Assembly (NCBI GenBank): GCA_017436325.1
Contig: JAFSDI010000002.1
Span: 35,457 to 99,456, forward strand
From: Alphaproteobacteria bacterium
GTDB lineage: Bacteria > Pseudomonadota > Alphaproteobacteria > Rs-D84
DNA length: 64,000 nt
Direction: 5' to 3'
The notes beneath the pieces are model-generated. The model was given only the letters and a program-made list of their open reading frames with translations, ran no database searches and was not told the DNA's origin. The position numbers and the translations under genes were made by a program. Of this stretch, positions 1 to 61,388 are shown piece after piece. How positions within the stretch are numbered: position 1 is the first letter of the stretch; the number at the start of each line of letters is the position of its first letter.

Positions 1-408
1 ATCATAATCACTAAATATATTACCAAGACCAACTGAATAGTCATAGGGGTAAAATAATCTGTCTATCACACCTGCAATACCTGGAAAATTCGGGTCTGTA
101 TAATTTAATAATAAAAGTTCCGATATATTATCAGTTGGGATTTGTGTTGTGCCGTGGTTTTCAATAAATTCCTCGCCAAATAAAAGTTCTAAATCACCTG
201 AAATAACGTCACGATACGTCAATTCTGCCGGCGTTCCAATAATTTCTGACAAAGTTGTTAATTCACTTTTATCTGCCTTAGAATTCAGTGATTCCATTGT
301 TGCATAATCTGCGATTTTCTCGTCAAAGAACCCGCGCGAAATAATAGATGCGCCTGCACTGCCCATAAATGTAACCCCAAAAACTGCACCAAGAAAAATT
401 TTATTCAT
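1..408 (-). CDS. Secreted protein, paralog 1 of a three-member family. The N-terminal 136 aa are in the window and the C-terminus runs off the left edge. It has a signal peptide followed by the motif ASIISRGFFDEKI.
   Basis: ATG at 408..406 is preceded by AAGGAG. Translation MNKIFLGAVFGVTFMGSAGASIISRGFFDEKIADYA is homologous to the N-termini of the ORFs at 55617 and 62787. It was missing from the ORF track because no stop codon lies in the window. Confidence 0.7.
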   Translation of the reverse strand, partial: MNKIFLGAVFGVTFMGSAGASIISRGFFDEKIADYATMESLNSKADKSELTTLSEIIGTPAELTYRDVISGDLELLFGEEFIENHGTTQIPTDNISELLLLNYTDPNFPGIAGVIDRLFYPYDYSVGLGNIFSDYD

Positions 409-735: not shown

Positions 736-1419
736 TTAACAATCATTTAAAAAAGCTTCACGCATAATATCGTTAATTTCTGTCATTGATAATCCTGCGC
801 CTTGCAGATAATTGATTTGCATTTTTGTTGGTTTAAAAACAGCCGCGCTATGATCTGCGACATCTGGTTCACTTGAAATACGTTGCGCTGGCAAGAATTC
901 TGTTTTTGCGCCTTGCCCCACCATTGCAACAAATGATATATCTGATTTACATGCTGGACAGTCTTTATTGATAATCGCAACACCTGATAATTTAGATTGT
1001 GCATTTTTGCCGGCAAAAAGTTTATTTTTTACAAAAATAGCCGTATTTTTATATAAATGTTTTGCCTCGCAGTAATAATCTAGCATATCAGACATATTAT
1101 TCATAAAAACATTTGCTTTTATTTCAGAATTTTTACCGGCATTTTTGATAAAAATGTTAAAAAAAGCCGGCTTTTTATTTTTTACATTAACACTAACAAT
1201 AACGTTTTGATTATCGACCCCCAGTTCGATATTCAGCCGGCATTTACCGGCAATTTCCCCAACATAAATAATATGAACAGGTAAATCATATTTTTTATTG
1301 ATTGGTTTGTTTTCAAGTGTTGATAAATCTGGACAATAAACCCCATCGCGGTAAACAATAGTTTCCGCTGGGAAAGTTTTTATGTTGAATTCGTTCCACA
1401 TGTATGACATATTAAACAC
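736..1419 (-). CDS. SufB/SufD-family protein, C-terminal domain only. It is short at 227 aa and is an orphan, with no sufB or sufC adjacent.
   Basis: The C-terminus DVADHSAAVF...INYLQGAGLSMTEINDIMREAFLN matches the SufB/D C-terminal signature (H.A..g...l.YL.sRG......ll..aF). A copy of the palindromic repeat lies in-frame inside it at 1131-1180. Confidence 0.5.
   Translation of the reverse strand: MFNMSYMWNEFNIKTFPAETIVYRDGVYCPDLSTLENKPINKKYDLPVHIIYVGEIAGKCRLNIELGVDNQNVIVSVNVKNKKPAFFNIFIKNAGKNSEIKANVFMNNMSDMLDYYCEAKHLYKNTAIFVKNKLFAGKNAQSKLSGVAIINKDCPACKSDISFVAMVGQGAKTEFLPAQRISSEPDVADHSAAVFKPTKMQINYLQGAGLSMTEINDIMREAFLNDC
1131..1180. repeat. Palindromic repeat element, copy A (TACCGGCATTTTTGATAAAAATGTTAAAAAAAGCCGGC), lying in-frame inside the sufD-like CDS.
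   Basis: It has the same inverted-repeat core as the intergenic copies at 2534, 14741, 56206 and 58128. On the minus strand it is translated as ...KKPAFFNIFIKNAGKN.... Confidence 0.6.
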
Positions 1420-7953: not shown

Positions 7954-9725
7954 TTGATACAGAAGTTTCACGTACATTTGATAGGCGCAGTGCTTTATTT
8001 TTGACTGCTGGTGCGGTATTAACATCTGCGCTGGTATTGCGTATGTTGCAAATGCAGTTGTTTAATTATCAAGATTATAAACAAAAAAGCGAGAATAATT
8101 CATTTCGTATACAAATAAATATGCCTGAACGTGGCAAGATTTTATCGCGCACAAAAACACCGATATCACATGACGAAGCGATATACAGAATTTATATAAT
8201 TCCAGAAGAAGCAACAGATATAGATTTATTGTTAAATGAAATACAGCAAGTATTAAACATAAAAGCGAAGAAAATAAATAAAATCAAGGCAAAAATAAAA
8301 AAACAAATGAAGTTTCAACCTGTATTAGTCAGTGAAAATACAGATTGGAAAACCTTGGCGAAATTGCAGGCAAAAAACCTTAAAGGCTTACATGTTGAAA
8401 ACGGTTATGCCAGAATATATGAAATGGGGCCTGCGGGTGCTCAGATATTTGGTTATGTTGGCGAACCGTCAAAGCCTGTTGCGAATACACCTTTTTTAAC
8501 AACTGGTATTACGGGGTTGGAAAAACGTTTTAATGATGATATGAAAGGTTTGTCTGGTCAAACTGTGATGATAACGAATGCGGTTGGTCGCGTTATTGGC
8601 GAAGATAAAACTCAATTTATATCGCCGACTGTTGGTGGAAATGTTCAAACAACAATCAGTAATCGTATACAACGCGTATTGTATGATGCACTTACCGAGC
8701 ATCGTTCTGGTTGTGGTGTTGTTCTTGACATAAATACAGGTGATATTTTGGCGATGGTTTCTGTACCTAGTTTTGACCCAAATATGTTTCGTGAATACGA
8801 TGGTGAAGAATATATAGATACACTACGTCAAGATATCGCAAAACCATTTATGAACAAAGCGGTCGAAGGATTATATCCCCCCGGTTCAACATTCAAGATA
8901 GTTGTTGCCTTGGCTGCATTAGAATCGGGCGCAGTAACAGAAAAAGAAAAAATATTTTGTCCAGGGCATTGGGACTATGGCGACAGAAGATATCATTGCT
9001 GGGACCATCAGGGGCATGGCAAGGTAAATCTGGTTGATGCGTTAAAGCATTCGTGTGACATTTATTTTTATCAAATTGCATTACGAATTGGTATAGATTC
9101 GATAAAAGAAATGGCGTTAAAACTTGGGTTACAAGAAAAATATATGGATGATATAATTGCGCGTGAAATGTCTGGTGTAATTCCGGACAGGTATTGGAAA
9201 GAAAAGAACATTGGTTACAGGTGGGTACATGGTGATACAGTTATATCTGGTATTGGCCAGGGATTTATATTAACAAATTGTTTACAGTTGGCGGTTATGA
9301 TGGCGCGAACCGCATCAAATAAACAGGTTGTTCCACGTCTGATTATGGATGGGCCAAGTCCTGTATTCAAGACATTAGGATTGCAAAGCAAAAATCTTAA
9401 AACGGTTCTCAAAGGATTAGAACAAGTGACAAAAAAAGGCGGTACAGCTGCAGGCAGTGCGATAAATATAGACGGCAAGAAAATGGGGGGTAAAACAGGT
9501 ACATCACAGGTTCGTAGTATTTCAAAGAAAGAACGCGAAAGTGGTGTTTTAACTAACGAACAATTAAAATGGCATATGCGTAATCATGGGTTGTTTGTTG
9601 GCTATGCACCAACTGACAATCCGCGATATGCGGTCTGCGTTATTACAGAACACGCTGGTGGCAGTGGGCCTGCAGCAAAAACAACAGCCAAGGTTATAAG
9701 TGAACTTTTAAAATATGGAATATAA
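7950..9725 (+). CDS. mrdA: Penicillin-binding protein 2 (peptidoglycan D,D-transpeptidase MrdA).
   Basis: The motifs STFK and KTGT are present. The start overlaps the mreD stop as ATGA. Confidence 0.88.
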   Translation: MIDTEVSRTFDRRSALFLTAGAVLTSALVLRMLQMQLFNYQDYKQKSENNSFRIQINMPERGKILSRTKTPISHDEAIYRIYIIPEEATDIDLLLNEIQQVLNIKAKKINKIKAKIKKQMKFQPVLVSENTDWKTLAKLQAKNLKGLHVENGYARIYEMGPAGAQIFGYVGEPSKPVANTPFLTTGITGLEKRFNDDMKGLSGQTVMITNAVGRVIGEDKTQFISPTVGGNVQTTISNRIQRVLYDALTEHRSGCGVVLDINTGDILAMVSVPSFDPNMFREYDGEEYIDTLRQDIAKPFMNKAVEGLYPPGSTFKIVVALAALESGAVTEKEKIFCPGHWDYGDRRYHCWDHQGHGKVNLVDALKHSCDIYFYQIALRIGIDSIKEMALKLGLQEKYMDDIIAREMSGVIPDRYWKEKNIGYRWVHGDTVISGIGQGFILTNCLQLAVMMARTASNKQVVPRLIMDGPSPVFKTLGLQSKNLKTVLKGLEQVTKKGGTAAGSAINIDGKKMGGKTGTSQVRSISKKERESGVLTNEQLKWHMRNHGLFVGYAPTDNPRYAVCVITEHAGGSGPAAKTTAKVISELLKYGI

Positions 9726-13119: not shown

Positions 13120-14741
13120 TGGCACCGACTAACAAGTTCAGCTATTCTAATTTTACAGACGAACTCAGGACAAGACTATCTGTATTAGATGTTGTTGGGC
13201 GTGTTGTGCCATTAACCAAAAAAGGGCAAAATTATTGGGGGTGTTGTCCATTTCATAATGAAAAGACCCCCAGCTTTTCTGTGAATGAAGAAAAAGGTTT
13301 TTATCATTGTTTTGGTTGTGGTGAACATGGCGATATAATTTCGTTTACAATGAAGCATAACAATATGGACTTTAAGTCTGCGATTACAGAACTTGCATCA
13401 CAGGCTGGGCTTAAGATGCCAGATTATAAACCGCGTGACCCACATATTGTAAAACGTGAAGAGGCCTTGTTTGATATTTGTGAAAAGGCTGCACAAACAT
13501 ATACCGAAAAATTATTTACCCCTGATGGTGCGGTTGCGCTTGCATACGCACGAAAACGTGGATTTACAGACGAAGATATAAAAAAATATCGTTTGGGCTA
13601 TGCGCCAAAAAATAACATAATTGCAAATAAATACGCAGAATCAAGGTATTTGACAGAATCTGGTCTTTGCAGACGTGGTGATTATGGCTTATATGATTTT
13701 TTTCGTGACAAATTGATGTTTCCGATTTTTAATGCCAACGGCAAAGTTGTTGCATTTTCTGGTCGTTCATTGGACGGCAGTGAGCCAAAGTATATAAATA
13801 CATCTGATACAGATGTTTTTCACAAAAGAAAAACAGTTTTTGGCTTGAATTTCGCCCGTGAAGGAATCCATCGTGCAAATCGCAGTATTATTGTCGAAGG
13901 ACAAATAGACGCAATAAAAATGCAATTGAACGGGTTTCCAGAAACTGTTGCACCATTGGGTACAGCACTGACCGAAGACCATATTGCATTATTGTGTAAG
14001 TCAAATCGAAATATAACATTTTGTTTTGATGGTGATGGTGCTGGTCAAAAGGCTGCGGCCCGCGCGTGTGAACTTGTTATGCAATTTTTGCGTGATACAT
14101 CTGATGTTAAATTTGCGTTTGTTAATGGTGGTAAAGACCCTGATGAAATTTTAACAAAATCAGGAACTGATGCAATGCGCAAGATAATAGATGACGCAAT
14201 ACCTTTGACTGAATTTTTGTGGGATTTAGCGAACAAGAATTTTATAACATCGACCCCTGGGGGGCGCGCACAGGCAGAAAAGTTTTTGGATACAAACATA
14301 GAAAAAATTATCGATACAGAATTAAAAAAACACTATAAACAAGAATACGACAAAAGGAAATTTCAGCACTGGCAAAGTTGGAAGCGTGTAAAAAAAACAA
14401 TTGACGTAAAGTTGCCTGATATTGACGATATCACGAAAAACACATTGGTTTATATTGTGAATACTTTCCCAGAATTAGCAGAACGGTATTTGGAATTTTT
14501 GGGTACATTGGGTGTTGATTTTGATGGCACTGTTACAGATTTAAACCTAGATTTTGATGCAGCAGAAAAATATATAGTATCTTTAAAATTGCAACGATAT
14601 TTAGAAAAATTAAACACTCGTAAAAAAGAACTAACGGACAAGTTGTTATCTGGGGATGAAAGTGTTCGTGAAGAAATTGCCGAAACAGATACAGAAATAA
14701 AGAAATATACAGAAAAATTAAAATTATTAATCACACTATAA
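13119..14741 (+). CDS. dnaG: DNA primase.
   Basis: It has the Zn-binding motif CPFHNEKTPSF...CFGCGEHGD and a TOPRIM domain. rpoD does not follow it. Confidence 0.9.
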   Translation: MAPTNKFSYSNFTDELRTRLSVLDVVGRVVPLTKKGQNYWGCCPFHNEKTPSFSVNEEKGFYHCFGCGEHGDIISFTMKHNNMDFKSAITELASQAGLKMPDYKPRDPHIVKREEALFDICEKAAQTYTEKLFTPDGAVALAYARKRGFTDEDIKKYRLGYAPKNNIIANKYAESRYLTESGLCRRGDYGLYDFFRDKLMFPIFNANGKVVAFSGRSLDGSEPKYINTSDTDVFHKRKTVFGLNFAREGIHRANRSIIVEGQIDAIKMQLNGFPETVAPLGTALTEDHIALLCKSNRNITFCFDGDGAGQKAAARACELVMQFLRDTSDVKFAFVNGGKDPDEILTKSGTDAMRKIIDDAIPLTEFLWDLANKNFITSTPGGRAQAEKFLDTNIEKIIDTELKKHYKQEYDKRKFQHWQSWKRVKKTIDVKLPDIDDITKNTLVYIVNTFPELAERYLEFLGTLGVDFDGTVTDLNLDFDAAEKYIVSLKLQRYLEKLNTRKKELTDKLLSGDESVREEIAETDTEIKKYTEKLKLLITL

Positions 14742-14786
14742 AAATACCGGCTTTTTTAATAAAAATGTTAAAAAAAGCCGGCAAAA
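14741..14786. repeat. Palindromic repeat element, copy C, between the convergent dnaG and addB genes.
   Basis: AAAATACCGGCTTTTTTAATAAAAATGTTAAAAAAAGCCGGC. Confidence 0.7.
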
Positions 14787-24899: not shown

Positions 24900-25039
24900 A
24901 ACAAAATCAAAGCCTTATGATTATATACAAAAGAAAATCAAAATCAAGAATAAAGTAAAAAAAATATGTACTTTATTTGATAAAAAAACAATGTTATAAA
25001 ATTAGCATAAAAAGACCGGCGTTTTTTGCCGGTGATTTT

Positions 25040-28704: not shown

Positions 28705-28731
28705 AGAAAGTCCGGTATTTACCGGATTTTT

Positions 28732-29278: not shown

Positions 29279-29305
29279 AAACACCGGTTTTTATCCGGTG
29301 TTATT
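29279..29305. terminator. Bidirectional hairpin terminator (ACACCGGTTTTTATCCGGTGT).
   Basis: It lies between tRNA-Val and the hlyD-like gene. Confidence 0.6.
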
Positions 29306-55197: not shown

Positions 55198-55228
55198 TAA
55201 AAAAGCCGGCATTTGCCGGTTTTTTTGT
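55198..55228. terminator. Hairpin terminator AAAAAGCCGGCATTTGCCGGTTTTTTT.
   Basis: A member of the ACCGG..TTTACCGG hairpin family. Confidence 0.6.
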
Positions 55229-56205: not shown

Positions 56206-56316
56206 AAAAATGCCGGCTTTTTTTAGTAAAAATATTAAAAAAAGCCGGTAAAATACATACTGTGAAAAAATAATAGACTTGTTAAAAAAATACCGGCTTT
56301 TACCGGTGTTTTTTGA
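56206..56316. repeat. Composite palindromic element, copy D: a long inverted repeat, a spacer, then the hairpin ATACCGGCTTTTACCGGTG. It lies between the paralog-2 gene and parB.
   Basis: It has the same architecture as 58128-58236. Confidence 0.65.
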
Positions 56317-57974: not shown

Positions 57975-58127
57975 ATTTCCTTTCCGTATTTTTTCGATTT
58001 AAACAATATAAGAATACTGCGATTCGGTCAAGGTTTAAGTGTTGCTTTTAATAAAAACTACTAAAAACAATATGTTATATTGTGTTTCATATGAAATGAA
58101 CTTGTGTATTTGTTTTTTTTATAAATA

Positions 58128-58236
58128 AAAAGCCGGTTTTTTTGATAAAAAAGTTAAAAAAGGCCGGTAAAATTAAAAAAATCAAAGTATAGTAAAATTG
58201 TTGAAAAAAATACCGGCATTTACCGGTGTTTTTTTA
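58128..58236. repeat. Composite palindromic element, copy E, between rsmG and parA.
   Basis: AAAAAGCCGGTTTTTTTGATAAAAAAGTTAAAAAAGGCCGG ... ATACCGGCATTTACCGGTG. Confidence 0.65.
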
Positions 58237-58272: not shown

Positions 58273-58833
58273 TTAGTTCTTTGGGTCAACGATAATGATA
58301 AATCCATCACCTGTTTTTGATGGGATAAGTTGATAATCAAATTTATATTTCGTTTTTGCGATATCGATTTCGCCGGCAATTTCGCGTCCTTTTAGCAGAA
58401 AAAGCCGGTGTTTAGTTGTTGCGACATAGTCCATTATTTTTACTAATGATGCAAATGCGCGTGCTGTAAATACAAAATCGCTTGTTTTTGCCGGTAAATG
58501 CCGGATAAAGTCTTCCAATCTGCCGTGATAAACTGTCAGGTTGTTCAGTTTTAATTCTTCTTTTACGGTGTTCAGGAAAGAAACTTTTTTCCCGATTGAT
58601 TCAACGCATGTTACATTCCATCCCAAGATAGCCAATACAACACCTGGGAACCCTGCCCCACTGCCCATATCGATGATATTGACATTTTGTGGCAAAACGT
58701 CTGCAAGTTGTGCAGAATCGGCAATATGTCTGGTTTCTATATCGTTTAATGTACTTGGTGCGACCAGATTCATCCGTTTTGACCATTGTCGCAGCAAGTT
58801 TGCATAATGTTCGAATTTGACTTTATTGTTCAT
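58273..58833 (-). CDS. rsmG: 16S rRNA (guanine527-N7)-methyltransferase RsmG (GidB).
   Basis: SAM motif IIDMGSGAGFPGVVLAI. The start was moved to the internal Met. No mnmG lies upstream. Confidence 0.85.
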   Translation of the reverse strand: MNNKVKFEHYANLLRQWSKRMNLVAPSTLNDIETRHIADSAQLADVLPQNVNIIDMGSGAGFPGVVLAILGWNVTCVESIGKKVSFLNTVKEELKLNNLTVYHGRLEDFIRHLPAKTSDFVFTARAFASLVKIMDYVATTKHRLFLLKGREIAGEIDIAKTKYKFDYQLIPSKTGDGFIIIVDPKN

Positions 58834-61357: not shown

Positions 61358-61388
61358 AACAGCCGGTATTTACCGGCTTTTTTTATGA
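61358..61388. terminator. Hairpin terminator AACAGCCGGTATTTACCGGCTTTTTTT.
   Basis: It lies between the convergent gpsA and radical-SAM genes. Confidence 0.65.

Follow-up and report, generated by a model that had tools for sequence, protein, structure and literature searches.

Terminator-like palindromes in an Rs-D84 alphaproteobacterium and a doubly constrained, uninserted copy within a SufD-like gene

We scanned a 64,000-nt stretch of DNA from an alphaproteobacterium of the order Rs-D84 (GenBank contig JAFSDI010000002.1, positions 35,457 to 99,456; hereafter the window, whose two strands are written + and -) that carries five copies of a palindrome, one of them within a SufD-like gene. The original prediction for this DNA had taken the copy in the gene for an in-frame insertion of a selfish repeat behaving like the Rickettsia palindromic elements (RPEs) and spreading in the genome. 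Our reading, which we hold with moderate confidence from sequence comparisons, is that the palindromes are probably terminator hairpins used throughout this lineage (Rs-D84 / Candidatus Enterousia), and that the copy in the gene, which was not inserted and is selected in two ways, is likely a one-way antisense terminator that would shield the promoter of the neighbouring gene ychF.

The palindrome family and its member in a SufD-like gene

A search with a 24-nt core, AATAAAAATGTTAAAAAAAGCCGG, returned five matches, all on the + strand (1147-1170, 2553-2576, 14758-14781, 56225-56248 and 58144-58167, with 1, 0, 0, 2 and 3 mismatches in copies 1 to 5, respectively), and 0 matches in dinucleotide shuffles. 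A profile made from the five copies retrieved exactly five strong matches in the window at 45-51 bits, with nothing else above ~23 bits. Each copy folds as a long hairpin, with fold energies of -14 to -24 kcal/mol and + strand z-scores of -2.8 to -7.9, and the shared architecture is a CCGG(C) clamp, T6/A6 arms and an A/T-rich centre, AAYATTTTTAT, in a unit of ~45-50 nt. Core matches, profile and shuffles thus all agree with the five homologous copies that had been reported at these places; the consensus quoted for them, by comparison, is exact for copy 2 and inexact for the other four. Rfam searches of the whole window at gathering thresholds and of positions 1-2700 at E-value thresholds returned only tRNAs and chance-level matches, and a simple terminator scanner overlooks the palindrome owing to the scanner's loop and stem limits.

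Copy 1 (1131-1183, +; hairpin 1136-1170) lies ~430 nt inside the coding sequence (CDS) of the SufD-like gene and, as had been described, sits within the open reading frame (ORF) at 736-1419 on the - strand without breaking it, the - strand translation being K-K-P-A-F-F-N-I-F-I-K-N-A-G-K. Its U-rich tail, CTTTTTATTTTTT at 1171-1183, is present on the + strand only, i.e., antisense to the SufD-like gene and sense for ychF. The four intergenic copies occupy the terminator-like places ascribed to them, three in convergent spacers and one in a tandem spacer. Copy 2 (2534-2585, -) lies between the convergent genes ychF (+) and pheT (-), has U-rich tails on both strands, and by its sequence would be a bidirectional terminator. 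Copy 3 (14741-14786, -), in the convergent spacer between dnaG and a PD-(D/E)XK nuclease gene, runs from the dnaG stop codon to 19 nt before the stop of the nuclease gene. Copy 4 (56206-56256, -) lies downstream of parB in the convergent spacer between a hypothetical gene and parB, and copy 5 (58127-58173, -) lies between the tandem genes gidB and parA, each of the two following a second, shorter hairpin that is taken up below. Among the window's intergenic copies only copy 2 has a U-tract on the other strand too; in copies 3, 4 and 5 it is on the - strand only.

The SufD-like gene (736-1410, -) encodes 224 aa from the ATG at 1410, while the mechanical ORF list begins it at the GTG at 1419. 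Its Pfam match to PF01458 scores 26.9 bits against a cut-off of 27, a profile of its orthologs matches E. coli SufD with E = 0.0014 (PDB SufD matches), and a Foldseek search with its AlphaFold model (mean predicted local distance difference test, or pLDDT, of 89.6) retrieved SufB and SufD chains as the best matches, with a probability of 1.0. The product is a short SufB/D-type beta-helix protein in which the SUFBD core fold and the C-terminal motif were both found. Having only the beta-helix core and C-terminal helices, this 224-aa protein can be described as a mini-SufD, and no other suf genes were seen beside it in the inspected loci. Comparisons drew on 80 orthologous loci (~1.46 Mb) from species-representative genomes, plus 10 metagenome loci. 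The orthologs and the 80 loci all come from uncultured gut Alphaproteobacteria, many of them labelled Candidatus Enterousia, a group within the order Rs-D84 with genomes of ~0.75-1.0 Mb (PMC12306168).

The original prediction had proposed that orthologous sufD genes be compared for the presence or absence of the insert. In this comparison the segment is always present and no gap appears: 20 orthologs (63-85% identity, all 218-226 aa) align gap-free at the copy 1 segment, 62 codon-aligned orthologs do likewise, and 17 distant homologs (21-57% identity) from a library-wide profile search have a segment of the same length, again with no gap. Over all comparisons, orthologs at 54-85% identity and distant homologs at 30-49% carry it gap-free. 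The sequence of the segment decays gradually in the distant homologs (KKPAFLNIFIKN, NKINSELNININN, TSGATKLRIEINP), and among the 20 orthologs no part of the protein is better conserved than the peptide KKPAFFNIFIKNAGKNSEI. In the AlphaFold model, the copy 1 peptide lies inside one long beta-strand (residues 72-93, block pLDDT ~96). All intragenic copies, taking the window, the 80 loci and the 10 metagenome loci together, are in the SufD-like gene.

Given that no ortholog or distant homolog without the segment was found, which is the outcome that the original prediction itself had named as contradicting it, the proposed in-frame insertion has to be given up. The likeness to RPE behaviour goes with it, there being no indel, one host gene only and a core beta-strand at the site, and the idea of active or recent spread does not sit with a pheT/ychF spacer copy that is syntenic in many species or with the lack of copies in further genes. 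What the gene holds is not a recently inserted selfish element but an ancient, integral segment of unchanged length that codes for a beta-strand. An in-frame palindrome in a gene is not in itself evidence of an RPE-like invasion, and a check of orthologs is needed before one is proposed.

Nucleotide-level constraint and a candidate terminator facing ychF

The copy in the gene is selected at its nucleotides as well as at its amino acids, and is thereby a sequence with two uses. Among the codon-aligned orthologs, Pro81 is CCG in 60/61, compared with other proline columns that use all four codons at an entropy of 1.2-1.9 bits. Ala91 is GCC in 31/33, the Thr variant at this position always being ACC, and Ile86, Phe87 and Asn94 are ATT in 60/61, TTT in 58/59 and AAT in 57/57, respectively. 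When synonymous diversity was measured in a sliding manner across the 62 codon-aligned orthologs and scaled to the gene's own codon usage, it fell to 0.33-0.55 of expectation at codons 77-97 (copy 1), to 0.5-0.6 at codons 51-59 (a short hairpin, below) and to 0.2-0.6 at codons 1-22, with values of 0.8-1.0 over most of the remaining codons and a mild dip at codons 122-128. The constraint, in other words, spans the first ~98 codons in three patches. The five core positions that vary among the gene copies (n = 79) are also those that vary among the intergenic copies (n = 44). All other positions are invariant in both sets, the centre AAYATTTTTAT included, with 10 of the 11 loop bases among them.

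The intergenic copies are best read as intrinsic terminators that are stable rather than mobile, judging by sequence, position and covariation. They combine a stable GC-containing hairpin with a U-tract and a position shortly after a stop codon. The window and the 80 loci together hold ~55 of them, 41 in convergent, 11 in tandem and 0 in divergent spacers, and nearly all begin 0-40 nt past a stop codon. In profile orientation their tail is U-rich, with the consensus GCCGG-TAATTTTTT; with this tail on one side, the window's intergenic copies share an orientation in which they would serve the - strand genes pheT, the nuclease gene, parB and gidB. Their outer stems show compensatory changes (A-U in 18 vs C-G in 12 at one pair; U-A in 14 vs A-U in 12 at another), and the covariation score of 0.112, compared to 0.086 in shuffles (2/500 of which reach 0.112), is above all slid controls. 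Exact matches to the intergenic type in the Joint Genome Institute (JGI) metagenome collection number 10, all of them at gene 3' ends.

The pheT/ychF spacer holds a copy in ~17 or more species, some species having no strong match there, and this synteny speaks for long-term retention rather than recent mobility. In one species (L029), the spacer copy (8830-8877) is inverted relative to that of other species and its centre has diverged (GAGTGTTTTTATC), which indicates a local inversion or replacement. Intergenic copies are also slightly more alike within one genome than between genomes (5.8 vs 7.4 differences, p = 0.004), which points to some turnover.

A short second hairpin, AAAAAAATACCGGCWTTTACCGGTGTTTTTT, accompanies both copy 4 and copy 5 at a distance of ~30-45 nt and had gone unmentioned in the original prediction. 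This type-2 hairpin has the form ACCGGC-WTTT-ACCGGT with A and T tracts. The one beside parB (AAAAAAATACCGGCTTTTACCGGTGTTTTTT; 56286-56315, unstranded) begins 9 nt past the parB stop and, having both an A-tract and a T-tract, would by its sequence be bidirectional, and the one beside gidB (AAAAAAATACCGGCATTTACCGGTGTTTTTTT; 58206-58236, unstranded) lies 37 nt past the gidB stop. A further hairpin of the same sequence type as these short terminators downstream of gidB and parB is found in the SufD-like CDS (GCCGGCATTTACCGGC; 1234-1252, +), where it forms the sense codons A-G-K-C-R. The SufD-like gene accordingly holds both hairpin types, in the order and orientation of the pairs downstream of parB and gidB. 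At the short intragenic hairpin, the Arg58 codon is CGG in 27/29 orthologs, and the codon before it ends in C (TGC, AAC, CAC or TAC) in every ortholog with CGG there, which preserves the CCGG.

The ychF GTPase gene (1438-2517, +; Pfam) is divergent from the SufD-like gene across a 27-nt spacer. By ORF caller, a divergent ORF of ychF length lies upstream in 60/60 orthologous loci, with a 27-nt spacer in ~50 of them, Pfam confirmation of the ychF identity being confined to the window and the distant homolog loci. Downstream of both hairpins and still within the SufD-like CDS is a promoter-like site, TTTACC-18-AATAAT (1243-1272, +), which may be the ychF promoter. Its -35 hexamer is overlapped by the 1234-1252 hairpin on the ychF strand, and its -10-like (TATAAT-like) hexamer, which falls across codons H46-I47-I48-Y49 on the ychF strand, is at the same aligned position in 31/62 orthologs. 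Over the 12 nt past the hairpin, the 79 gene copies read approximately CUUUUUAUUUUU on the antisense strand and GAAAAAUUCUGA on the sense strand. The flanks being A-rich on both sides of the sense strand, it is the antisense strand that reads as a hairpin followed by a U-rich tail. In 50/62 orthologs the antisense RNA also folds more stably than the sense RNA, by a mean of 2.2 kcal/mol, and the sense RNA folds too, at ~-10 to -12 kcal/mol. No conserved antisense promoter that could mark out a discrete antisense RNA was found downstream of the hairpin, and the window's promoter-like site at 946-975 falls in a region without synonymous constraint.

On the antisense strand, then, the hairpin followed by CUUUUUAUUUUUU could act as a one-way terminator placed ~100 nt upstream of a ychF promoter that would itself lie inside the SufD-like CDS. 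Together, the two intragenic hairpins would make a one-way terminator or insulator on the ychF strand, where the hairpin would halt stray, antisense or read-through transcription before it reached ychF. On the sense strand the hairpin is followed by GAAAAAUUCUGA, and the SufD-like mRNA would be expected to pass unterminated. We infer the terminator activity, the position of the ychF promoter and the insulating role from these arrangements of sequence.

Several points weigh against this interpretation. Since the compared sequences are related, tallies of the kind of 60/61 and 50/62 do not count independent events. Pairing in two registers accounts for only part of the near-identity that gene and intergenic copies show in the loop. 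The promoter-like site scores only 9/12 in the window and is present in half of the orthologs, and the antisense U-tract is missing in 1/5 distant homologs (L094). Finally, the window has no convergent gene to stop, its downstream neighbour being on the same strand, and the hairpin is no more or less stable in genomes with an abutting convergent gene than in those without one.

Age of the hairpin and alternative explanations

Each of five homologs (39-47% identity; contig GC content 26-52%) retains the pattern CCG GCx ... xCC GGx (5/5), and the one from the 52% GC contig even keeps TTT TTA ... ATT TTT against its own codon usage. The intergenic terminators read in two of the contigs that carry these homologs (L094 and L095) are of unrelated sequence. 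The divergent pair of a mini-SufD gene and an ORF of ychF length likewise persists as far as homologs with 35-49% identity, on contigs whose GC content is 26-52%. On this small sample of homologs and terminators, the base of the gene hairpin appears to be older and more widespread than the intergenic family. A speculative extension, which we would sooner doubt than accept, is that the coding-embedded hairpin was the progenitor of the intergenic terminator family of the Enterousia lineage, or that both share a dedicated sequence-specific partner. If this were true, no repeat would have invaded a gene; the gene would instead have supplied one of its segments as a regulatory module for reuse elsewhere.

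A related explanation makes the shared partner primary: the hairpin with its loop, in RNA or DNA form, would be recognised by a protein or RNA, for which the gene copy would be a regulatory site, and termination would be secondary. The invariance of gene and intergenic copies at the same positions, 10 of the 11 loop bases included, is what such a partner would leave, and copies 4 and 5 stand beside good type-2 terminators, which makes them redundant as terminators. However, no candidate partner was found, there is no Rfam family and no resemblance to parS, much of the loop is base-paired when one strand folds in another register, which can explain part of the invariance, and the distant homologs retain the clamps but not the loop. 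We consider this explanation unlikely. An identity with parS itself was tried separately and dropped, the window giving a single chance-level match elsewhere.

The constraint could instead concern the sense strand, with the mRNA structure pausing translation so that the beta-helix can fold, or acting as a stability element or an attenuator. Synonymous constraint is indeed centred on the hairpin, the sense RNA does fold at the energies given above, and a slippery-looking A AAA AAT stands 6 nt upstream of the hairpin. Nevertheless, the antisense fold is the stabler one in 50/62 orthologs, the U-tract is antisense only, and a -1 shift would meet an immediate stop codon, yielding no obvious product. 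A sense-strand role thus seems to us rather improbable.

An insertion might also be placed much further back, as an ancient insertion or an equal-length segment replacement by a terminator-like palindrome before the family diverged, followed by domestication. This would account for the presence of both hairpin types in the gene, arranged as are the tandem terminators downstream of parB and gidB, and for a nucleotide identity with the intergenic copies that extends to the loop. It is highly improbable all the same: homologs down to 21-30% identity have a strand of the same length with gradual sequence decay, the CCGG clamps occur in lineages whose sampled terminators differ in type, so that the gene hairpin seems older, and the continuing synonymous constraint would be left unexplained.

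Passive homogenisation, in which a functionless gene copy undergoes gene conversion with the ~35-60 intergenic copies per Mb, has in its favour that intergenic copies are more alike within a genome than between genomes. However, an intergenic copy differs from its own genome's gene copy by 4.37 positions and from those of other genomes by 4.30 (p = 0.64), and with no own-genome excess the likeness of gene and intergenic copies is to be attributed to shared constraint rather than ongoing conversion. At position 30 and in the 3' tail, gene copies have fixed differences from intergenic ones, none of which is ever transferred, and the clamps are conserved where no intergenic family is seen, which leaves this explanation scarcely credible. 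Least tenable of all is a selfish RPE-like element, or one resembling a miniature inverted-repeat transposable element (MITE), recently inserted in frame and spreading in the genome: a CDS does hold one family member in frame, copies from the same genome differ slightly less than copies from different genomes and the L029 spacer copy is inverted, but no homolog lacks the segment or has a gap there, the segment is a core beta-strand, the same nucleotides recur in 79 genomes where synonymous sites are otherwise near saturation, no second gene carries a copy in ~1.5 Mb, and the pheT/ychF spacer copy is syntenic across many species.

Comparison with known repeats and further observations

RPEs are ~150 bp long and add in-frame peptide segments to dozens of unrelated genes, from whose orthologs they are absent (PMC10969869). 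Like them, the present family is a set of palindromic repeats in a reduced-genome alphaproteobacterium with one in-frame CDS member. Unlike them (~100-150 bp, genus Rickettsia), it has a unit of ~45-50 nt, belongs to Rs-D84 / Candidatus Enterousia, occupies a single host gene, shows no indel relative to any homolog, and codes there for a core beta-strand under nucleotide-level constraint. As multi-copy short hairpin repeats at gene 3' ends with a terminator- or 3'UTR-like character, the copies also resemble SPRITE and repetitive extragenic palindromic (REP) elements (PMC10969869; bioRxiv 10.64898/2026.03.23.713779). In contrast to SPRITE and REP elements, which are extragenic and considered mobile, they include copies that are syntenic across species and a CDS member apparently older than the intergenic ones. 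REPs are linked to RAYT transposases, and no REP-type 5' GTAG-like tetranucleotide is apparent in the alignment of the palindrome copies.

The palindromes further share with bidirectional intrinsic terminators a GC-clamped stem, an A-tract with a U-tract, and a location in short convergent spacers, a description that copy 2 fits exactly, and the compensatory evolution of their stems is like that described for Bacillus cereus terminators (PMC5381666). Unlike ordinary terminators, they have one sequence, loop included, common to loci and species; and unlike bidirectional ones, copies 3-5 have the U-tract on one strand only and copy 1 lies well inside a CDS. The DNA uptake sequences (DUS) of Neisseria and the uptake signal sequences (USS) of Pasteurellaceae are short motifs whose inverted pairs form terminators, and which also constrain codons inside genes. 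DUS and USS, however, are 9-12 nt long and present in hundreds to thousands of copies, many of them genic, whereas here the conserved unit is the whole 35-nt hairpin with its loop, CCGG is not over-represented, and the full element is in one gene only.

What sets this family apart is an unusual combination: a coding segment under dual constraint (protein and nucleotide) across the order, the same sequence, loop included, as a probable terminator at many gene ends, and signs of the gene hairpin predating the family. In a very compact genome, ~60 nt give both a conserved beta-strand and a hairpin kept at synonymous sites, across the order and beyond. The system is a tractable one for studying the origin of a terminator family, the insulation of divergent promoters buried in neighbouring genes, and the share of apparent protein conservation that is due to nucleotides.

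A role of CCGG as a restriction or uptake signal was rejected (97 observed vs 85 expected in the window, no bias), and partial resemblances to integron attC sites, a dif/XerD arm, integration host factor (IHF) sites and CtrA boxes were set aside because the spacing or the copy number was wrong. The stem clamp favoured in this genome is CCGG. The commonest terminator-like hairpin of the window is of a second, shorter type, has the form A-tract-RCCGGY-WTTTW-RCCGGY-T-tract, and is found at 25016-25032, 28712-28725, 29284-29298, 55206-55219, 56293-56306, 58213-58226 and 61363-61376. The 14-mer CCGGCATTTACCGG occurs three times, at 1237-1250 in the SufD-like CDS, at 58213-58226 in the gidB terminator and, as the reverse complement, at 58491-58504 in the gidB CDS, which makes gidB a second gene also containing a terminator-type CCGG hairpin.

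Around the SufD-like gene, codons 1-11 (1378-1410; ATG TCA TAC ATG TGG AAy GAA TTC AAy ATA AAA) are synonymously near-invariant among the 62 orthologs. A promoter-like site for this gene, TTGAAT-17-TATAAT (1448-1420), lies inside ychF, and evidently the start regions and promoters of the SufD-like gene and the ORF of ychF length overlap (1380-1437). Downstream of the SufD-like gene, in a genome that is roughly 90% coding, positions 400-735 form an unusually long stretch of ~330 nt free of genes. It includes a GC-rich patch (640-690) and, on the - strand at 457-437, a hairpin resembling a terminator, and it has no Rfam match. A conserved noncoding RNA in this 330-nt spacer that would use the copy 1 hairpin as its terminator was considered and discarded, as relatives show no DNA-level conservation of the spacer. 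Beyond it, positions 1-400 (- strand) hold an ORF cut by the window start, whose product apparently has a signal peptide (MNKIFLGAVFGVTFMGSAGA...). This ORF follows the SufD-like gene in tandem here; in 28/60 related loci the downstream neighbour is instead convergent, often overlapping the stop codon. In a distant relative, the spacer upstream of ychF contains a short tandem repeat, GTGGTTC x4 (L093:5962-5990). Across the whole window, GATC is nearly absent (17 observed vs ~230 expected from trinucleotide frequencies) and CATG is at 0.41 of expectation, with CCGG and other 4-mers near 1, a scarcity that suggests restriction avoidance or a methylation-related bias.

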